A DNA stretch of 64,000 nucleotides from an uncultured Gemmataceae bacterium. Lineage in GTDB: Bacteria > Planctomycetota > Planctomycetia > Gemmatales > Gemmataceae. Of this stretch, positions 4,958-27,365 are shown in pieces; the stretch's first letter is position 1, and every line of letters begins with the position of its first letter. The stretch covers positions 448,001-512,000 of the forward strand of contig CAVVPN010000011.1 of the NCBI GenBank assembly GCA_963750165.1, in the 5' to 3' direction. A program made the translations under genes and the position numbers. Under the pieces are notes generated by a model that saw nothing but the letters and a program-made list of their open reading frames with translations, was not told the origin of the DNA and did no database searches.

Positions 4958-6952
4958 TCAGTTCCACGCCACCTGGAAGCGCAGTTCGCCGCGTTCCCGG
5001 TCGGCGGCGCGCGGCACCGCCAGCAAATAGCCGCACCGCCGCCGGGCGTCCCACAGGAACGTCCAGTTGCGGCCCGGCAGACTGCCGCGCAGCCGCGGCG
5101 TCCGATCCGCCGGCGCCTGCGGCAAGTGAACTTCCACGAACACGAACTGCGTCAGTGCGTGCCGCTCCTCGTCGTCGGTTTCCTTGCTGCGCAGGCCCGC
5201 CAGGCGGCCGTTGGGCAGCATCGCCGTCTGATACTTGCTCGTCTTCACCTGCGGATAGTTCGACGGCAGCGTCACGGTGAGCCTCTTGCCGTCCACGACC
5301 TGCGACCGCACCGCCGGCAGCGCGTCCGCGGGCGCCGTGGCTCGCGGCAGGTGCAGCGTCGGGTCGCCCCAGAGCGTGAAGGCCCACGCGGAGCGCACGT
5401 TGGCGCCGCCCAGCTTCGCCTCGGTGCCGAGTCGCTTTTCCTTGAGCTGCGCGAACGCCAGCAGGAAATTCTTGGACTGGCGCAGCGACCCGCCCAGCGA
5501 CTGCTGCTCATACAGCAGAGCGTCGAAGAATGCCAGGGCCAGCGCTCCGCCGGAGCCGGAGTACGTCCGCGTCGAGGAGCCAATGACCGCGACGGCGCCG
5601 CACTCCAGGAACGGCTGCGCCTCCGGCGCCGCCAGGGCCATGCAGCTCTGCAGGAAGACCAGCGACGGTTGTAGCGTCTCCTTCCATTTGTGGATGCCGT
5701 ATTCGCGGGCGAGCGTGGTGTGGTGGCCCTCCCACAGAAAGATTGTCTGCTGGGGCAGCAGCCGGCGAATCGTCGCCTGGTTCACCTGACGGCCGAAGAA
5801 GGCGTTGGTTTCGTAGCCCGCGTTGCTGAACTCGCGGCTGGTGTTGCGGGCGAACATCTCCAGCAGCGGCAGGCCGCCGCCGGGATTGCTGACGATCAGC
5901 GCCTTCGGTGTTCCGGTCTGGGTGGCGAGCAGCCGCTGCCGGGCGAGCATCAGCATGACGAGGCCGCGGTCCGCGTGGAACAGCCGGCCGACGGCGAAAC
6001 TGAATGGCTCGCCGCCGCGCGGCGTCAGCGGCTCCATCTCAATGAAGCGATCCGCGCCGCCGACGACCGGGTTGGGCCGCTTCTCCACGGGGATCGCCTT
6101 CAGGTTGGCGAGCAGGATCACCGCGTCACAACCGGCCAGATCGGGGTTTTTCAGGGCGTCCTGCACGAGGGAGCGCACGTCGTCGCCAGCGTCGTTGGTC
6201 AGCAGCAGCGCGGCGCGGCGCTGCAGCGCCAGCCAGGGCGCCAGCGCCGACAGGCGGCCGTGTTTGTCGTCGGCGGGATTGGCAACCACGAACGTCTCGA
6301 TCGGTCCCTGCTTGCGTAGATGGCGGATGTGCTCGGCTTGCACGGCCTGCTCGTCCGGCAGCGGCACCACGGCCGCTTTGGTCAGGCCGAGGCAGTGCTC
6401 CGCGCCGGCGCCGACGGCCAGGATTTCTTTCGTGTGCCAGGCCAGCAGGCGGCGCTTCAGGTCAGCGCGTTCCGCCGGGGCGCCGTTGGTGACCACGAGC
6501 GGCACCCGCAGCACACCGGCCAAGCACGCGGCCTGGAGCAGCAGCCGCCGCGGTTGCGCCGGACAGACGACCGCGCGGCGGGCCAGCGGATATAGCGCGC
6601 GCTCCAGTGCCTTTGGCGGGCCGCGCTGCCAGGCGCGACGCGGCGCTGTCTTGAGGCCCAACCGCTCCTCCATGTCCGCCACCGATTCCGGGAACTCGCC
6701 GACGGGCACGAGCTGGTCGGGCTGGAACGCCTGCAGGAAGGCCCGGGTGGTTTTGGCAGCGGCGGGCGAATCGAGCAGGACGACGCCAGGATTCGGGCTG
6801 GCGGCGACGGCGGTGGTGAACGCGATCAACTCCTCGTCGGACATCTGGCCAGCGAGGAAGATGGTGCGTTCGCCGTGAGCGGCGGCCGGCGTCGGGGCGG
6901 CGAACAGACCGGCGACAACGACGAACAACGTCACGGTGGCTCGGTGGAGCAC
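4958..6952 (-). CDS. Secreted C25 (gingipain-like) cysteine peptidase domain protein
   Basis: Signal peptide; AVGRL, FLWEGH, VFLQSC His/Cys dyad, FTLWGDP. Confidence 0.7.
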   Translation of the reverse strand: MLHRATVTLFVVVAGLFAAPTPAAAHGERTIFLAGQMSDEELIAFTTAVAASPNPGVVLLDSPAAAKTTRAFLQAFQPDQLVPVGEFPESVADMEERLGLKTAPRRAWQRGPPKALERALYPLARRAVVCPAQPRRLLLQAACLAGVLRVPLVVTNGAPAERADLKRRLLAWHTKEILAVGAGAEHCLGLTKAAVVPLPDEQAVQAEHIRHLRKQGPIETFVVANPADDKHGRLSALAPWLALQRRAALLLTNDAGDDVRSLVQDALKNPDLAGCDAVILLANLKAIPVEKRPNPVVGGADRFIEMEPLTPRGGEPFSFAVGRLFHADRGLVMLMLARQRLLATQTGTPKALIVSNPGGGLPLLEMFARNTSREFSNAGYETNAFFGRQVNQATIRRLLPQQTIFLWEGHHTTLAREYGIHKWKETLQPSLVFLQSCMALAAPEAQPFLECGAVAVIGSSTRTYSGSGGALALAFFDALLYEQQSLGGSLRQSKNFLLAFAQLKEKRLGTEAKLGGANVRSAWAFTLWGDPTLHLPRATAPADALPAVRSQVVDGKRLTVTLPSNYPQVKTSKYQTAMLPNGRLAGLRSKETDDEERHALTQFVFVEVHLPQAPADRTPRLRGSLPGRNWTFLWDARRRCGYLLAVPRAADRERGELRFQVAWN

Positions 6953-7198: not shown

Positions 7199-7332
7199 CG
7201 CTCCCCCCTCCCGTGACAGAATCCGCCGTTCGGCTGCACTGCTTCAGCCACAATGACATCGACCGTTCTAGAGATGTCGGCGGGGGCTTTTCCGTAGTTC
7301 GGCGTGCCACTTGCATTCCGGCTGCGTGGCGA

Positions 7333-7382
7333 TTACTCTCCTAGCGGGCGCTGGCGCAGCGCGGCGCCCGCTAGGAGAGTAA
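7333..7382. repeat. Perfect 19-bp inverted repeat
   Basis: ttactctcctagcgggcgc ... gcgcccgctaggagagtaa. Confidence 0.85.
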
Positions 7383-7436
7383 AATCGGGAACCGCAACCC
7401 TGTTAGGCGCACGGCGCCCTAATCATCTGGTTCGGC
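7379..7436 (+). other. attI-like recombination site, copy 1
   Basis: GTAAAA-N17-GTTAGG...GCCCTAA-tcatctg-GTTCGGC; homologous to 7535-7595; upstream of the attC array. Confidence 0.5.
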
Positions 7437-7488
7437 GGGTGTCGGCATGCCCTCCCCGGGCATTTCCGATAAAAAAAGTGCGCGCTTA

Positions 7489-7517
7489 TTGACTTTCGAG
7501 ATTCGACCGGTTACGCT
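7489..7517 (+). promoter_or_regulatory. Sigma70-like promoter (candidate cassette promoter Pc)
   Basis: TTGACT-17 nt-TACGCT pointing into the array. Confidence 0.55.
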
Positions 7518-7534
7518 CCGCTCCGCTGGTGAAC

Positions 7535-7595
7535 GTAAAACCTGAAACAGTGACCTTGTTAGGGCGCACGGCGCGCCCTAATCACCTGGTTCGGG
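7535..7595 (+). other. attI-like recombination site, copy 2
   Basis: GCCCTAA-tcacctg-GTTCGGG; GTTCGGGC (7589-7596) is the exact reverse complement of the first attC R'' box GCCCGAAC. Confidence 0.6.
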
Positions 7596-7614
7596 CACAA
7601 AGGGAGGCTGGAGC

Positions 7615-8730
7615 ATGTTCAAGGAGCGTTCCATGCGAATTTCCCCGACGATGGGTCTGGCTTTGGTGCTATTGCTAACGACAGCAGTCACCGCCACAGG
7701 GGCACTGAGCGCCACCGCACCGGCACAGAAGACTGATGTCGTGGCCGAAGAAAAAGCGGCCGCCGCCATTGACAAATCGGGGGGGAAATTGTCAGAGATG
7801 AGAAACTCAATGGCGCGGTCGTGTGGGTGAGGTTCAGAATCAACTCAGGAACCGATGAGGAGTTGGCGCCCTTGCGGGCGTTTTCCAAATTACGCCAGCC
7901 TGCATCTCAGCTTCTCCAAGGTGACGGGGGCGGGACTGGTTCACCTGAAGGGGTTGACCGAATTGGAAGTGCTGGAGTTGGGGCACAGCAAGGTCTCAGA
8001 CGACGGGTTGGACTACCTCAAGGGGTTGACGAAACTGAGGTTCCTCTCCCTGTCTGGGACGCAGGTCACGGACAAGGGGTTGGAGCGGCTGAAGGGCTTG
8101 GTCGGACTGGACGGGTTAGAACTCCAGCATACGCAGGTCACGGACGAAGGGTTGGTTTACCTCAGCGGCCTGAGAAAACTTGAGAGCCTGAGTCTGTCCG
8201 GGAAGGCGGTGACAGACAAGGGGCTTGCTCGTCTGAAGCATCTGACCGCATTGCGTTGGTTATCCCTGCCGCAAACTCAGGTGACAGATGAGGGACTGGT
8301 GCACCTCCAGGACATGACCAACCTTCAGTCGTTGGACCTGGCGTTTACTCCGCTGAAAGGCAAAGGTTTGACCCACCTGAAAAAAATGGTAAAACTTGAG
8401 GGTTTGAACCTCGGTGACACGCAGGTGACGGATGAAGGGTTGATCCACCTGAAGGGATTGAAAAACTTGCGGAGGTTAAGCCTCAGCGGCACCAGGGTGA
8501 CGGACAAGGGGCTGACTCATCTCGCAGAATTGACGGCGCTTGAGAGCTTGTCGCTCGTCCTGACGAGGGTAACGGATACGGGAGTGAAGAGCCTGAAACA
8601 GGCGCTACCCGAAGTTGCGCGTCAACTGAGAAACCGTGCCGCTCGGAAAGAGGAAAAGGGTCGGGTTAAGTTTTCTGAAATGAATTGCCAGACAAGCAAG
8701 GAAACAGCCCGAACCAGGTGTTGCACGTGA
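7615..8730 (+). CDS. Secreted leucine-rich repeat protein (cassette 1), two frameshifts near 7785 and 7895
   Basis: Signal peptide followed by 24-aa LxLxxTQVTDxGLxxLxxLxxL repeats. Confidence 0.85.
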
Positions 8731-8797
8731 CGGGCCAACTGAGATCAATCGGATGCGCCCAGGTCATTCGGCCCGCGCGTGAACTGGGTTGTTCGGC
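8707..8797 (+). other. attC site 1
   Basis: GCCCGAAC...GTTCGGC ends; inner stem gttGcacgtgAcgggcc / ggcccgcgcgtgaac with two unpaired bases. Confidence 0.8.
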
Positions 8798-8838
8798 GGA
8801 TTTAAGGCGGAACTGCTGAGCACGACCGGGAGAATGCG

Positions 8839-9321
8839 ATGACAGTGAAACCCAATAGCACGAACCGTACGCCGGAGGCCCAGCTCCGGGCCTACATCGA
8901 CAAGCTTGATCCGAAGATTCAGAAGCTCTTTCGATCGGTCCGGGCTGCTGTGCGTAAGCGATTCCCGACCGCCAACGAACTGGCGTACGACTACAGTCAC
9001 GCCCTCGTCATCGGCTATTCGCCGGCGGACCGAGGGATCGATGCCATCGTGGCGATCCGCGCCTGTGCCACCGGTGTGTCTCTGTACTTCAGTCAGGGAC
9101 CTCAGCTGCCCGACCCGAAGCGGCTTCTGCGGGGATCGGGAAAGCAGACTCGCTTCATCCAGGTGGAGGCGGCCAGCCAGTTGGCACATCCAGACGTGGA
9201 AGCGCTGATCGCCGCTACGATTGATCAGGCGAGGATTCCGTTGCCATCCAGGGGAAAGGGCAGTCTCATCATCAAGTCGGATGGTGCGAAGAAGCCGCCA
9301 CGCCGGAAGCCGACGAAGTGA
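8839..9321 (+). CDS. DUF1801 (YdhG-like) protein (cassette 2)
   Basis: LFRSVRAAVRKRFP, VSLYFSQGPQLPDPKRLLRGSGKQTRFI. Confidence 0.75.
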   Translation: MTVKPNSTNRTPEAQLRAYIDKLDPKIQKLFRSVRAAVRKRFPTANELAYDYSHALVIGYSPADRGIDAIVAIRACATGVSLYFSQGPQLPDPKRLLRGSGKQTRFIQVEAASQLAHPDVEALIAATIDQARIPLPSRGKGSLIIKSDGAKKPPRRKPTK

Positions 9322-9427
9322 CGGCGGGCGTTGCTGAGGCAACGTGTCCCAGACGAGCATGGGTGGGGGTCTCGTCCGCGTGAGCGAGGTGCCGGGAAAG
9401 AAAAAGGGGTCAGGTTTATTTAATCCG

Positions 9428-9517
9428 GCCCGAACCAGTTGTTGCACGTGACGGGCCAACTGAGGTTGCAGCTGAGCATTGAGTCGAGTGGCCCGCACGT
9501 GAACTGAGTTGTTCGGC
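9428..9517 (+). other. attC site 2
   Basis: GCCCGAAC...GTTCGGC; stem gttGcacgtgAcgggcca / tggcccgcacgtgaac. Confidence 0.85.
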
Positions 9518-9637
9518 CACAGAGGCTTCACGGATGGCGGCACTCCCGAGTCACCCCCAATTGAGCAAACCGGGCGGAGGCAATGAGGGAGTTCGTCCAC
9601 GGACACGCGGTAGGTCGTTCCGGGAGATACACCCGAT

Positions 9638-10056
9638 ATGTGGCTGCTGCACGGAACGACGCGCGCCGGGCGGAGAGCATCGATCAACTCGGCCCCGATG
9701 TCAATTTCGTCGAGCCGGGAGGGGTAGGCATCGCGGAGAACTTCTCGTTCACCGTCGAGGGCACGCCGTCTGCTGTCGGTGATTCACTCACCTACGCCCG
9801 AGGTAAGGCGGCCGCCTTCTCGAACGAGCGCGGCCCGGCGGTCATCGCGGTCGATGTGCCTGAAGAGGTGGTACGGATCGCGGCGGTCGAACATCTCTCC
9901 CTGTTCGGGGGCCTGATCGAGTACGATGAAGGGGCGGACGTGGCCGAACTCGTCGCTCTCTGTGGCGGGGTCATCCAGTTCGACCCAGGGCCGGCGTTGG
10001 ACAGCCTGTTGGCTATGTGGGGAACTCTCGCGAAAGAGATCCGAGGTGTGCCGTGA
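9638..10056 (+). CDS. Hypothetical protein with N-terminal LLHGTT motif (possible ADP-ribosyltransferase fold), frameshift near 9667
   Basis: ATG 9638 gives MWLLHGTTRA, which joins RAESIDQLGPD in the ORF-track frame. Confidence 0.5.
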
Positions 10057-10529
10057 TCCCGTCCGGGACGGTCTATGATCGCTTGCAACGCGCCTTCAGG
10101 CCGACGCAACGCGGCGTCGTAGGGTTAACCGAGCAGTTGCTCGGGGCCTGCGTCGGAGGCGATGTTGAGTTCGAACGGGTTGGGGACCGGTGCGTTTATC
10201 GTTGGACCGAAGGTGGGCATACCCAAGAGGCCCCGGTGCCTTTCTCGCCTGCGGCCTTCCGGACAATCCTGGCCCGTGTCGCCACGCTGTGCAACGAGCG
10301 GTCCCCTGGGTCGGTCTCGCCTTACGGCGGTGAGGGTAAGCTGGTCGTCGGGACGGCTGAGGCTTTCGTGAAGTTCGTTAACACGGCTCACGCGCAGAAA
10401 TTGGAAGTGAAGAGCGATGCGAGCTCAAACCCCGTTCCTCAGCCGGAACCGGCCAAGGAGGGCACGGCGATTGCAGGCTCGAAACCGCCTAACGTTTCTC
10501 AGCAAATTGATCCCGCGAAATACGATTAA
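10053..10529 (+). CDS. Hypothetical protein, translationally coupled to the upstream gene
   Basis: GTGA start/stop overlap; the same frame continues past the TAA to about 10890. Confidence 0.65.
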   Translation: MIPSGTVYDRLQRAFRPTQRGVVGLTEQLLGACVGGDVEFERVGDRCVYRWTEGGHTQEAPVPFSPAAFRTILARVATLCNERSPGSVSPYGGEGKLVVGTAEAFVKFVNTAHAQKLEVKSDASSNPVPQPEPAKEGTAIAGSKPPNVSQQIDPAKYD

Positions 10530-10902
10530 TCTGACTCTGAACTTCAGATCCTCGGTTCGCTCTTGGACGCGATGCTGCGCGGAGGCCAGGCCTTGCTCCT
10601 GACTGAAGACATATTAGACCCCGACGAAAGCAGTATCGACCTGGAACAGTACGCCGACGCGCTTGAGATGGCCATTGGTGTCCGACCGCGACAACTCAAT
10701 GTCGCGGTCATTCGAAGGTTGATGGGTGCTGTGATCGACCATTGGATCAAGTTGAAGGTCTCCTTGGGCCTAATCGCTATTGATGACATGGGGATTGCAA
10801 TCCATCATGCGGCAGAAAATTTGCCAACGCCTATCCGTTCGGTAGAGAGGGGGCTGGCCAGAGGCCGAAGGACGCGGAGAAGGAGCCGGCGTAGCAAATC
10901 GC

Positions 10903-10999
10903 GCCGAACAAGGGCGCTGCAGCAGACCGGGGCCGCATTTCGGTCTTTCGTGACACAGTGTCCAGCCAGCGGCCCCGGCTGCTGAGCTGGTCGTTCGGT
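10903..10999 (+). other. attC site 3
   Basis: GCCGAAC...GTTCGGT; stem gctGcagcagAccggggccgc / gcggccccggctgctgagc. Confidence 0.9.
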
Positions 11000-11011
11000 G
11001 GCGCCGGAAGG

Positions 11012-11647
11012 ATGACGCGAATGGAGGCAGTGCGCGGCGACGAGTTCTTGCGGTGGGCGGTTGAGGTCGGCATCGGGTTCGACCCGCGCTACCCCGATGC
11101 CCGCTGCCTAAGCCTCCTGCCACCGAGCAGCCACGCGCGTTTCTGGGTGTTACCGCGCGACCCGGCGACGTGGCCTCTCTTCGTCACCTCGCTGCTGTTC
11201 GGGTTGGATGAGTGGGCCACCGGGCTACTGTGGCCGCGCTGCGGGGCCTGGCCCGACACCGGCCAGTCCCGATCGCTCAACGAGAGCGTGCGGGGGGTCG
11301 TGCTGCGCGGCGCGGGCATCCCAAGCGGCTGGGCCGGGGCGGTCCGGTTCCACCGGGATGAGGAGGACGTGCTCGCCACGGTGCTGTTCGCCTTCCTGAC
11401 GTTCAGCTGGAGCGTGGTCGATGACCTGTTCTTCATCCCCGACCACGGCCGACAGTTGGTCCAGACGGACCACCATGACGTGATCCACGCCGAGTGCGCG
11501 TCGGAAGGCCGGGTCCGGCAGTTGGTCGAGGTCATGGCCGAGGCGGGCTACGAGCTGCCCACCGAGCCACCGGACTGGACGTTCAAGCGTCCGGCCTGGA
11601 TGGTCAGCGCCAGTCCGGGCGAACCACCGTCCTCCGGTGGCGGATAA
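11012..11647 (+). CDS. Hypothetical protein (cassette 4)
   Basis: ATG about 13 nt after attC3; open frame of about 211 aa. Confidence 0.7.
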   Translation: MTRMEAVRGDEFLRWAVEVGIGFDPRYPDARCLSLLPPSSHARFWVLPRDPATWPLFVTSLLFGLDEWATGLLWPRCGAWPDTGQSRSLNESVRGVVLRGAGIPSGWAGAVRFHRDEEDVLATVLFAFLTFSWSVVDDLFFIPDHGRQLVQTDHHDVIHAECASEGRVRQLVEVMAEAGYELPTEPPDWTFKRPAWMVSASPGEPPSSGGG

Positions 11648-11862
11648 GTTGTGCCATACCGGCTGCTGTGGCCAGCCCTTGAGGTCACGAAGAAGACAAG
11701 AGGACGCAGCTCGAATCGGCTTCTGGACAGGGCGGGGAAACCGGGACGGGTGGGGATGGGGAAAGAGGGCCGAACCCGCCAGGAGGTGGCACTCATGTCC
11801 CCTCTCGCGCCGGCAGGGCGGTCGCCGTTCTGCAAGTAATTCGTGGGCTGGTTTCGGAATCC

Positions 11863-11914
11863 GACACGTGAAAAAGTTGGCATTCTTGGCATTCTTGGCA
11901 TCCTTGCTGTGACA
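11863..11914 (+). repeat. Dispersed TGAAAAAG(TTGGCNNNC)3TTGCTGTG element, copy 1
   Basis: Matches copies at 36253, 36360 and 50249. Confidence 0.85.
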
Positions 11915-12085
11915 GCCGGCGCAAACGTGTGTCCCGCCAGGACCCTTCCGGGTGACGCCGCCACCGCCTGCCAGCGCCGCGCCGGCGCTGATTGCAAGGA
12001 ATGTGCGCGGAGAAGATAAGAGGACGCTGCCAGGGGGCGACTCCAGCAGACGCCCTCAAATTAGGATCAGGCGGCAAAGAAACAG

Positions 12086-13045: not shown

Positions 13046-13135
13046 TTTTTTTACGCCGAAGCCGTTGTATCTCAAAGCCTGGGGTTGCGGCAGCGCACCC
13101 CAGGCTTTGAGATACAACGCTTCGGCTTAAAAAAA
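13046..13135. repeat. Long REP-like hairpin
   Basis: cgttgtatctcaaagcctgggg ... ccccaggctttgagatacaacg with T/A-tract ends. Confidence 0.85.
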
Positions 13136-27292: not shown

Positions 27293-27365
27293 GGGCCTGT
27301 AGCTCAATGGTCAGAGCAGGGGACTCATAATCCCTTGGTTCCTGGTTCGAGTCCAGGCGGGCCCA
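27293..27365 (+). tRNA. tRNA with CAT anticodon, most likely tRNA-Ile2 (lysidine); CCA not encoded
   Basis: Cloverleaf GGGCCTG/CGGGCCC, CTCATAA loop, GGTTCGAGTCC; resembles ileX-type tRNAs. Confidence 0.9.

Follow-up and report, generated by a model that had tools for sequence, protein, structure and literature searches.

Here, we show that a 64,000-nt stretch of DNA from an uncultured Gemmataceae bacterium (the window; contig CAVVPN010000011.1, positions 448,001 to 512,000) contains an integron-type cassette array with attC sites and no integrase, and that this array stands behind a repeated module that recurs ahead of attC clusters elsewhere in the genome. The array is a group of clustered attC sites without an integron-integrase (CALIN), and CALINs themselves are a known kind of element; the new part is the dispersed solo platform, made of an attI-like site and a promoter-like motif, that is found on CALINs. 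Judged from sequence comparison, the locus is probably a CALIN headed by such a platform and likely served in trans by the single full-length integron integrase (IntI) of the genome. On this view, one remote enzyme likely supplies many small satellite arrays and not a single array. The genome is a 9.6-Mb assembly of 12 contigs with 66% G+C and 93% completeness, in which the window corresponds to C11:448001-512000.

A first-pass annotation of the sequence had recognized three attC-type hairpins, and a covariance model bears this out. The model was trained on 32 attC sites of the main array on contig C4, none of them from the window, and is not the IntegronFinder model. It matches the plus strand at all three sites (Table 1) with 73.5, 73.2 and 71.5 bits (E-values from 4e-16 to 1.3e-15), while the next-best score elsewhere in the window is 13 bits. 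The sites carry R'' (AAC) and R' (GTT) boxes, an L''/L' stem with extrahelical bases and an unpaired central spacer, and the unpaired G and A of the hairpins, already noted, coincide with the unpaired positions of the model. On the bottom strand, attC2 and attC3 each form a fold that has two single-base bulges (z-scores of -5.1 and -4.6), whereas attC1, which has one stem change, folds no better than shuffled sequences (z-score of -1.2); the first spacer of attC3 is 6 nt instead of 5 nt long. A weight-matrix scan finds 82 attC site pairs in the genome, compared with 0 when the genome is reversed.

Complementary cassette ends are an established signature of circular cassette intermediates. Exact reverse-complement ends had been claimed for cassettes 1 and 3, and we find them (GTTCGGG at 7589 with CCCGAAC at 8708, and GTTCGGC at 9511 with GCCGAAC at 10903); for cassette 2 complementarity fails at the seventh base. 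Genome-wide, 41 of 61 attC-to-attC cassettes are complementary to their own R'' over at least 7 bases, compared with 16.4 in shuffles, and 0 of 5000 shuffles reach 41. A tyrosine recombinase had been reported missing from the window, and indeed 0 of the 36 PF00589 matches in the genome fall there, the nearest ones being at C11:206 kb and C11:702 kb, so that none lies within about 240 kb of the array. The array consists of attC sites in a recombinase-free neighborhood, as in a CALIN, and differs from a complete integron in that no intI adjoins an attI site and the array. It comprises three intact attC cassettes and one decayed cassette. The earlier description of an attC-type array without a local integrase is therefore supported, with three amendments: the element starts at about 7228 and not at 7535, the co-oriented reading frames between the hairpins include three in cassette 3 and a frame-broken gene in cassette 1, and the attI-like head with its dispersed copies had been overlooked.

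Which enzyme could serve such an array? A whole-genome search for intI finds one full-length IntI, on contig C4 (C4:1198586-1199911, 441 aa), which scores 426 bits against TIGR02249 (cut-off 265) and is the only one of 19 matches above the cut-off. It is 49% identical to IntI1, and its R-K-H-R-H-Y catalytic residues and integron-specific insert are intact. The main array, in about 49 kb adjoining this gene, holds 54 of the 96 genomic attC matches, and one of its sites is 95% identical over 99 nt to attC2 of the window. The first-pass annotation had left open whether the window array is a relic or is served in trans; because the IntI is full-length with all catalytic residues and attC2 is nearly identical to a main-array site, service in trans is favored. 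IntI is present in 65 of 150 other genomes of the family. The C4 IntI has two tandem N-terminal SAM-like domains, and several IntIs of the family likewise match with both parts. Within the main array, 8.6 kb from the intact gene, the attI region together with the 5' part of intI recurs as a 99.8% identical copy (C4:1189739-1190724) that is truncated at a heptamer-arm hairpin.

The 360 bp upstream of cassette 1 are two tandem copies, A and B, of one module, which is 150-200 bp long. Its parts are, in order: a -35-like motif, 17 nt and a -10-like motif; a first hairpin that starts within the -10 motif; an A-rich linker; a second hairpin with an L-box-like CCCTAAT inside its 3' arm; and a GTT triplet in which cassettes would join after the G (G/TT). 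In module A these are TTGCAT (7311-7316), TACTCT (7334-7339), hairpin 1 with arms at 7333-7351 and 7364-7382, and hairpin 2 at 7403-7422. Module B, 59% identical to A, has TTGACT (7489-7494), again 17 nt, TACGCT (7512-7517), a shortened hairpin 1, hairpin 2 at 7559-7581 and the CCCTAAT at 7576-7582. Mean pairwise identity is 66% among 13 aligned module copies, the -35/17/-10 spacing is conserved across copies, and conservation ends just past G/TT, where the following bases are a cassette-type box. Hairpin 1 covaries, with 11 of 20 pairs changed on both sides and an overall score that 0 of 500 shuffles reach. As the covariation extends into the -10 motif, any structure would form in DNA, and palindrome self-correction could yield such covariation without selection. 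An unrelated metagenome contig (L124:59-109) has a perfect palindrome with the outer motif of hairpin 1, which is probably a chance likeness.

The last 20 nt of the module are like the attI site on C4 and like the attI1 of a class 1 integron, read here from a plasmid, in which a short inverted repeat also precedes the L box. As at an attI site, the G/TT crossover position is fixed and variable cassettes follow it; the module does not lie beside intI. We call the head attI-like, likely an attI site by position and sequence. Two other assignments were rejected: the module is no degenerate attC, as it has no extrahelical base and a first spacer of 9 nt, and the idea that its 5' end is an intI stump is not supported, the start codons there not being in one frame.

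The module is tied to arrays throughout the genome. A profile search gives 25 matches with E<0.01, of which 16 are near-full, while the best match in the reversed genome has E=1.7. A same-strand match lies within 4 kb upstream of 11 of the 28 attC clusters outside the main array, compared with 0.4% of random positions. Among the ten clusters of at least 2 attC sites, five have the main module, two a second related type and one a direct-repeat type, and none was found for two; across all 28 clusters, 14 have no recognized head. Downstream of nine of the 16 near-full copies there is an attC within 4 kb. Where the next intact attC is no more than 1.3 kb away (7 of 12 solo heads tested), six of the seven heads match its R'' over 7-10 bases (27% expected); no match is seen for the five heads set aside, of which three lie 2.6-3.0 kb from the next attC and two precede a damaged first attC. 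The two intI-linked sites give no R'' match either, their next R'' boxes being damaged or several bases off. For 27 heads or candidate heads, the 3 kb upstream contain no intI relic.

Some individual heads deserve description. Four near-identical module variants without attC downstream (C12:63804, C3:2668968, C3:2672865 and C3:2678136) have their upstream flank in common, and the three on C3 lie within 10 kb; apart from these four, a search for a neighboring gene common to the upstream flanks of the 27 heads gave nothing. Other head types occur at C3:2406643, C12:348573, C11:842920 and C11:1456951, of which two contain a TATATGGCGC-like palindrome and the other two direct repeats; one direct-repeat head has its promoter part in common with the main module. 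At C11:694921-695848, an insert with a HicA-family gene and an upstream partner interrupts a module within hairpin 1. At C10:254327-255223, an attC is followed by two small genes and then by the 3' half of a module.

How widespread is the module outside this genome? A module model found matches in 2 of 149 family genomes, and only two copies in the relative G128 held up; the match in G159 and most weaker ones are plain hairpins. A pattern search of 252 family genomes added one match, probably by chance. Exact-pattern scans of genome and metagenome collections, which may omit records near our genome, yielded 17 and 25 hits; as none has an attC, an IntI or a full module, we treated all of them as chance. 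Solo heads of other types occur in relatives: G159 has two more shared head types, and in G136 a head with direct repeats follows a chromosomal gene. The relative G145 (one contig, one intI match) has 13 copies of its own attI region that extend to the crossover; 12 of them lead into attC sites and one lies beside intI. A locus common to G145 and G164 is 94% identical over 1666 bp up to GTTCGGC and in both genomes retains no more than a short end of intI, after which the first cassettes differ. We regard this locus as the best evidence that cassettes may turn over in trans at a head without its own integrase. The G145 arrays (L138-L142) contain many related, apparently non-coding repeat cassettes; the G145 intI is co-oriented with its array, and attI follows the intI stop codon.

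On the proposed explanation, the C4 IntI would have inserted circular cassettes at the G/TT of module B (7589), pushing older cassettes downstream, and the -35/-10 motif, a predicted promoter, would drive them. The least certain step concerns how the module spread: a gene-less circle, running from the module's own 5' GTT to its attI end, would have been excised and then inserted again at a chromosomal GTT or at the G/TT of another module. The latter would explain the tandem A-B pair. We raise only tentatively, with slightly more doubt than confidence, the idea that the promoter-attI unit is itself mobile, IntI excising it as a 160-220 bp gene-less circle and planting copies at chromosomal GTT sites, where they would found expressed satellite arrays. 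In 8 of the 15 non-tandem copies, a GTTYR motif precedes the -35 motif by 83-91 nt (by 90-91 nt in six of the eight), against a background of 5.6%; this distance range was picked after inspection of the data, and 20 of 23 promoter-bearing copies were used, 18 of them anchored. Left of the 5' GTT, module copies have unrelated sequences. In all three tandem cases the second unit follows directly behind the G/TT of the first, with no intervening cassette. The B units of the window and of contig C12 are 91% identical while the A units ahead of them are 65% identical, which fits separate insertions of B. In addition, the main array contains a relative of the promoter part directly after an attC, and in the G128 homolog GTTCG stands at -84 (counted by eye). 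Mobility is harder to reconcile with the 5' GTT box being missing in 7 of the 15 non-tandem copies, and with an identity that rises across the 5' GTT only from 0.45-0.49 to 0.53-0.57, where random sequence gives 0.49. If the module did move in this manner, a single integrase would operate a dispersed set of integron platforms as a network, and many CALINs would be active satellites and not relics.

Several observations weigh against a platform served in trans. The likeness to the attI of the resident intI is limited to about the last 20 nt of the module, and the resident attI has direct repeats and no hairpins. Most copies have a TAAT-like L box, whose spacer to GTT is 4-7 nt with a mode of 6, compared with 5 nt in attI1 and the C4 attI. 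The promoter motif has 8 of 12 consensus matches, below the threshold of the sigma-70 scan. No attC is detectable downstream of 7 of the 16 near-full copies, including the four near-identical ones, and across all solo heads tested only 6 of 12 match the next R'' over 7 bases. At 93% completeness, a second intI could be absent from the assembly. Among relatives, the long G145 copies have left flanks in common in pairs, which indicates that they moved within larger segments, and G128, G159 and G088 have many dispersed arrays with intI relics.

These last points bear on the main rival, namely that the heads are leftover attI and promoter regions of duplicated or imported integrons that lost intI, the arrays being mostly inert relics and the module never having moved alone. 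Among the listed origins of CALINs is the loss of intI (PMC4889954). Upstream of arrays in five relatives, 12 of 40 stretches hold intI or pieces of it (an intI-like stump remains in G159 L152 and a short intI end in G145 L192), and together with the paired G145 flanks this indicates that decay of duplicated integrons also makes solo heads. The window array itself shows decay, with its broken leucine-rich-repeat (LRR) gene, altered attC1 and collapsed fourth site. For the present genome we nonetheless consider this explanation unlikely: the 27 heads and candidates lack intI relics upstream and have left flanks that are for the most part unrelated, none of the 20 family intI loci examined was found to have the module beside intI, the B modules are far more alike at two loci than the A modules ahead of them, and cassette turnover at the G145/G164 locus shows that heads without intI can stay in use.

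Two further explanations seem much less probable. Cassettes might have been inserted at a secondary target (attG) or separated from the main array by rearrangement, the upstream repeat being an unrelated element (a small RNA, a miniature transposon or a palindrome) that happened to offer a GTT. Insertion at attG needs only GWT and is a proposed source of small CALINs (10.1101/2022.09.11.507474), half of the non-main clusters have no recognized head, and the strong covariation of hairpin 1 could reflect a role unrelated to IntI or the self-correction mentioned above. Random GWT targeting could not, however, place 11 of 28 clusters behind one module whose 3' end is attI-like, no Rfam match lies in the region and no terminal inverted repeats are evident in the module alignment, which makes this reading very improbable. 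Still fainter is the chance that a different recombinase docks at the modules, be it an IntI that the assembly lacks or a tyrosine recombinase encoded by an IS91-type element. Most of the length of the module is unlike the C4 attI, the genome has its 36 PF00589 matches, and a unit of a tyrosine recombinase and an IS91 transposase, starting GTTGAACTAAACCGC, lies exactly at the G/TT of two different heads, the module homolog of G128 (L168:3904 onward) and a different head in G159 (L198). This unit may be an IS91-type element that targets attI sites. However, it occupies the cassette position and looks like cargo, ending in G128 L168 with GTTCAAC followed by GTT, cassette-like; in our genome it was not found, its recombinase giving only distant matches (28-40%) and its transposase part none. 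Moreover, the attC sites that follow the modules are of the C4 family.

How does a CALIN with an attI-like head relate to known systems? Like the CALINs of the defining 2016 survey, the window array has at least two co-oriented attC sites and no nearby intI; it also has an IntI elsewhere in the genome, which held for half of the CALINs surveyed (PMC4889954). In the available text of that survey, CALINs are treated as being without a cassette promoter (Pc), attI was searched for classes 1-3 only and the expression of CALIN genes is called unknown, whereas the window array has a conserved attI-like, promoter-like head that recurs at many loci (PMC4889954). Service of CALINs in trans and intI loss have precedents (PMC4889954, PMC9668308, 10.1101/2025.06.18.660453). 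With a sedentary chromosomal integron the locus has in common its attC family, that of the 54-site integron, and a promoter-like motif, an L-box-like site and G/TT; it differs in that its head has no adjacent intI, occurs in 16 near-full copies and has two hairpins where the resident attI has direct repeats. Delta-attI-type cassettes are GTT-bounded, have an attI and not an attC as their 3' site and are excised and inserted by IntI1, one of them keeping 244 nt of attI2; they carry genes inside class 1 and class 2 arrays, whereas the module is gene-less, has a promoter motif and heads dispersed chromosomal arrays (PMC12901181). Gene-less promoter cassettes of Vibrio superintegrons are likewise predicted to drive downstream cassettes, but they are ordinary cassettes within an array, and the module ends attI-like and not with an attC (10.1101/2023.11.21.568050). 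The attG sites and single attC sites lacking integron-integrases (SALINs) of Loot et al. also involve IntI acting off the integron, and the 5' junctions of the module are unrelated sequences ending G/TT; attG sites have only GWT in common and no conserved flank, whereas here a conserved 150-bp module is used repeatedly and the first cassette stands behind it (10.1101/2022.09.11.507474). We found no description of a dispersed family of solo promoter-attI platforms in the literature searched, and a mention in subscription papers or supplements is possible.

A conserved head with a predicted promoter and attI on many CALINs suggests that these can serve as independent platforms for capture and expression, with one integrase feeding them. 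Dispersed heads would explain how a genome keeps many first cassette positions, and exact-match searches for attI of classes 1-3 cannot see them.

Table 1. Features of the cassette array and its upstream neighbor (window coordinates).
Feature	Position	Strand	Basis or remark
Flanking chromosomal Peptidase_C25 gene	4958..6952	-	Profile match; divergent from array, outside element
Head module A	7228..7429	+	Own GTTCGG box at 7228; ends at G/TT 7430
Head module B	7430..7588	+	Directly behind G/TT of A; predicted crossover G/TT at 7589
Cassette 1	7589..8790	+	Leucine-rich-repeat gene, frame-broken near 5' end
attC1	8708..8797	+	Covariance model; one stem change
Cassette 2	8791..9510	+	ORF (open reading frame) 8839-9321; DUF1801 match weak, under cut-off
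attC2	9429..9517	+	Covariance model and folding; near-match to main-array site
Cassette 3	9511..10992	+	Three ORFs without family: 9583-10056, 10053-10529, 10563-10985
attC3	10903..10999	+	Covariance model and folding
Probable fourth cassette	10993..11654	+	ORF 11021-11647, then collapsed attC-like remnant

The cargo of the array is varied (Table 1). The gene of cassette 1 is in two pieces, a hydrophobic N-terminal part (7615-7830) and the LRR frame (7855-8730), and the matches of its protein to internalin and XopL are far under the cut-offs. Cassette 2 circulates as a unit: near-identical DNA is present in soil contigs, in which pieces begin or break at 8791 in three runs, and in one contig the 58 bases ahead of 8791 are the arm of a different attC. 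The soil contigs come from other organisms and show this circulation only. The ORFs of cassettes 3 and 4 matched no protein families; the first ORF of cassette 3 has 76 relatives, mostly of 139 aa, and the Atlas neighbors of one cassette protein are mainly Planctomycetota. In the probable fourth cassette, the remnant retains GGCGAAC at 11618 and GTT at 11648, is missed by the attC model and folds no better than shuffled sequences.

The identification of the divergent upstream gene as a C25 peptidase agrees with its profile match (27.5 bits, cut-off 23). At 11 loci with orthologs of this gene, examined with 1.5-kb flanks in a search set that held no genome of the same genus, neither attC sites nor a DUF6807 gene were found. 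An Rfam scan of the window gave a single match, a tRNA gene at 27293-27365, and none in the array region. Just 3' of the array, positions 11857-11970 hold a repeat with TTGGCATTC-like units that has many copies in the genome, and at 13063-13119 there is a perfect 23-nt inverted repeat with an 11-nt loop.

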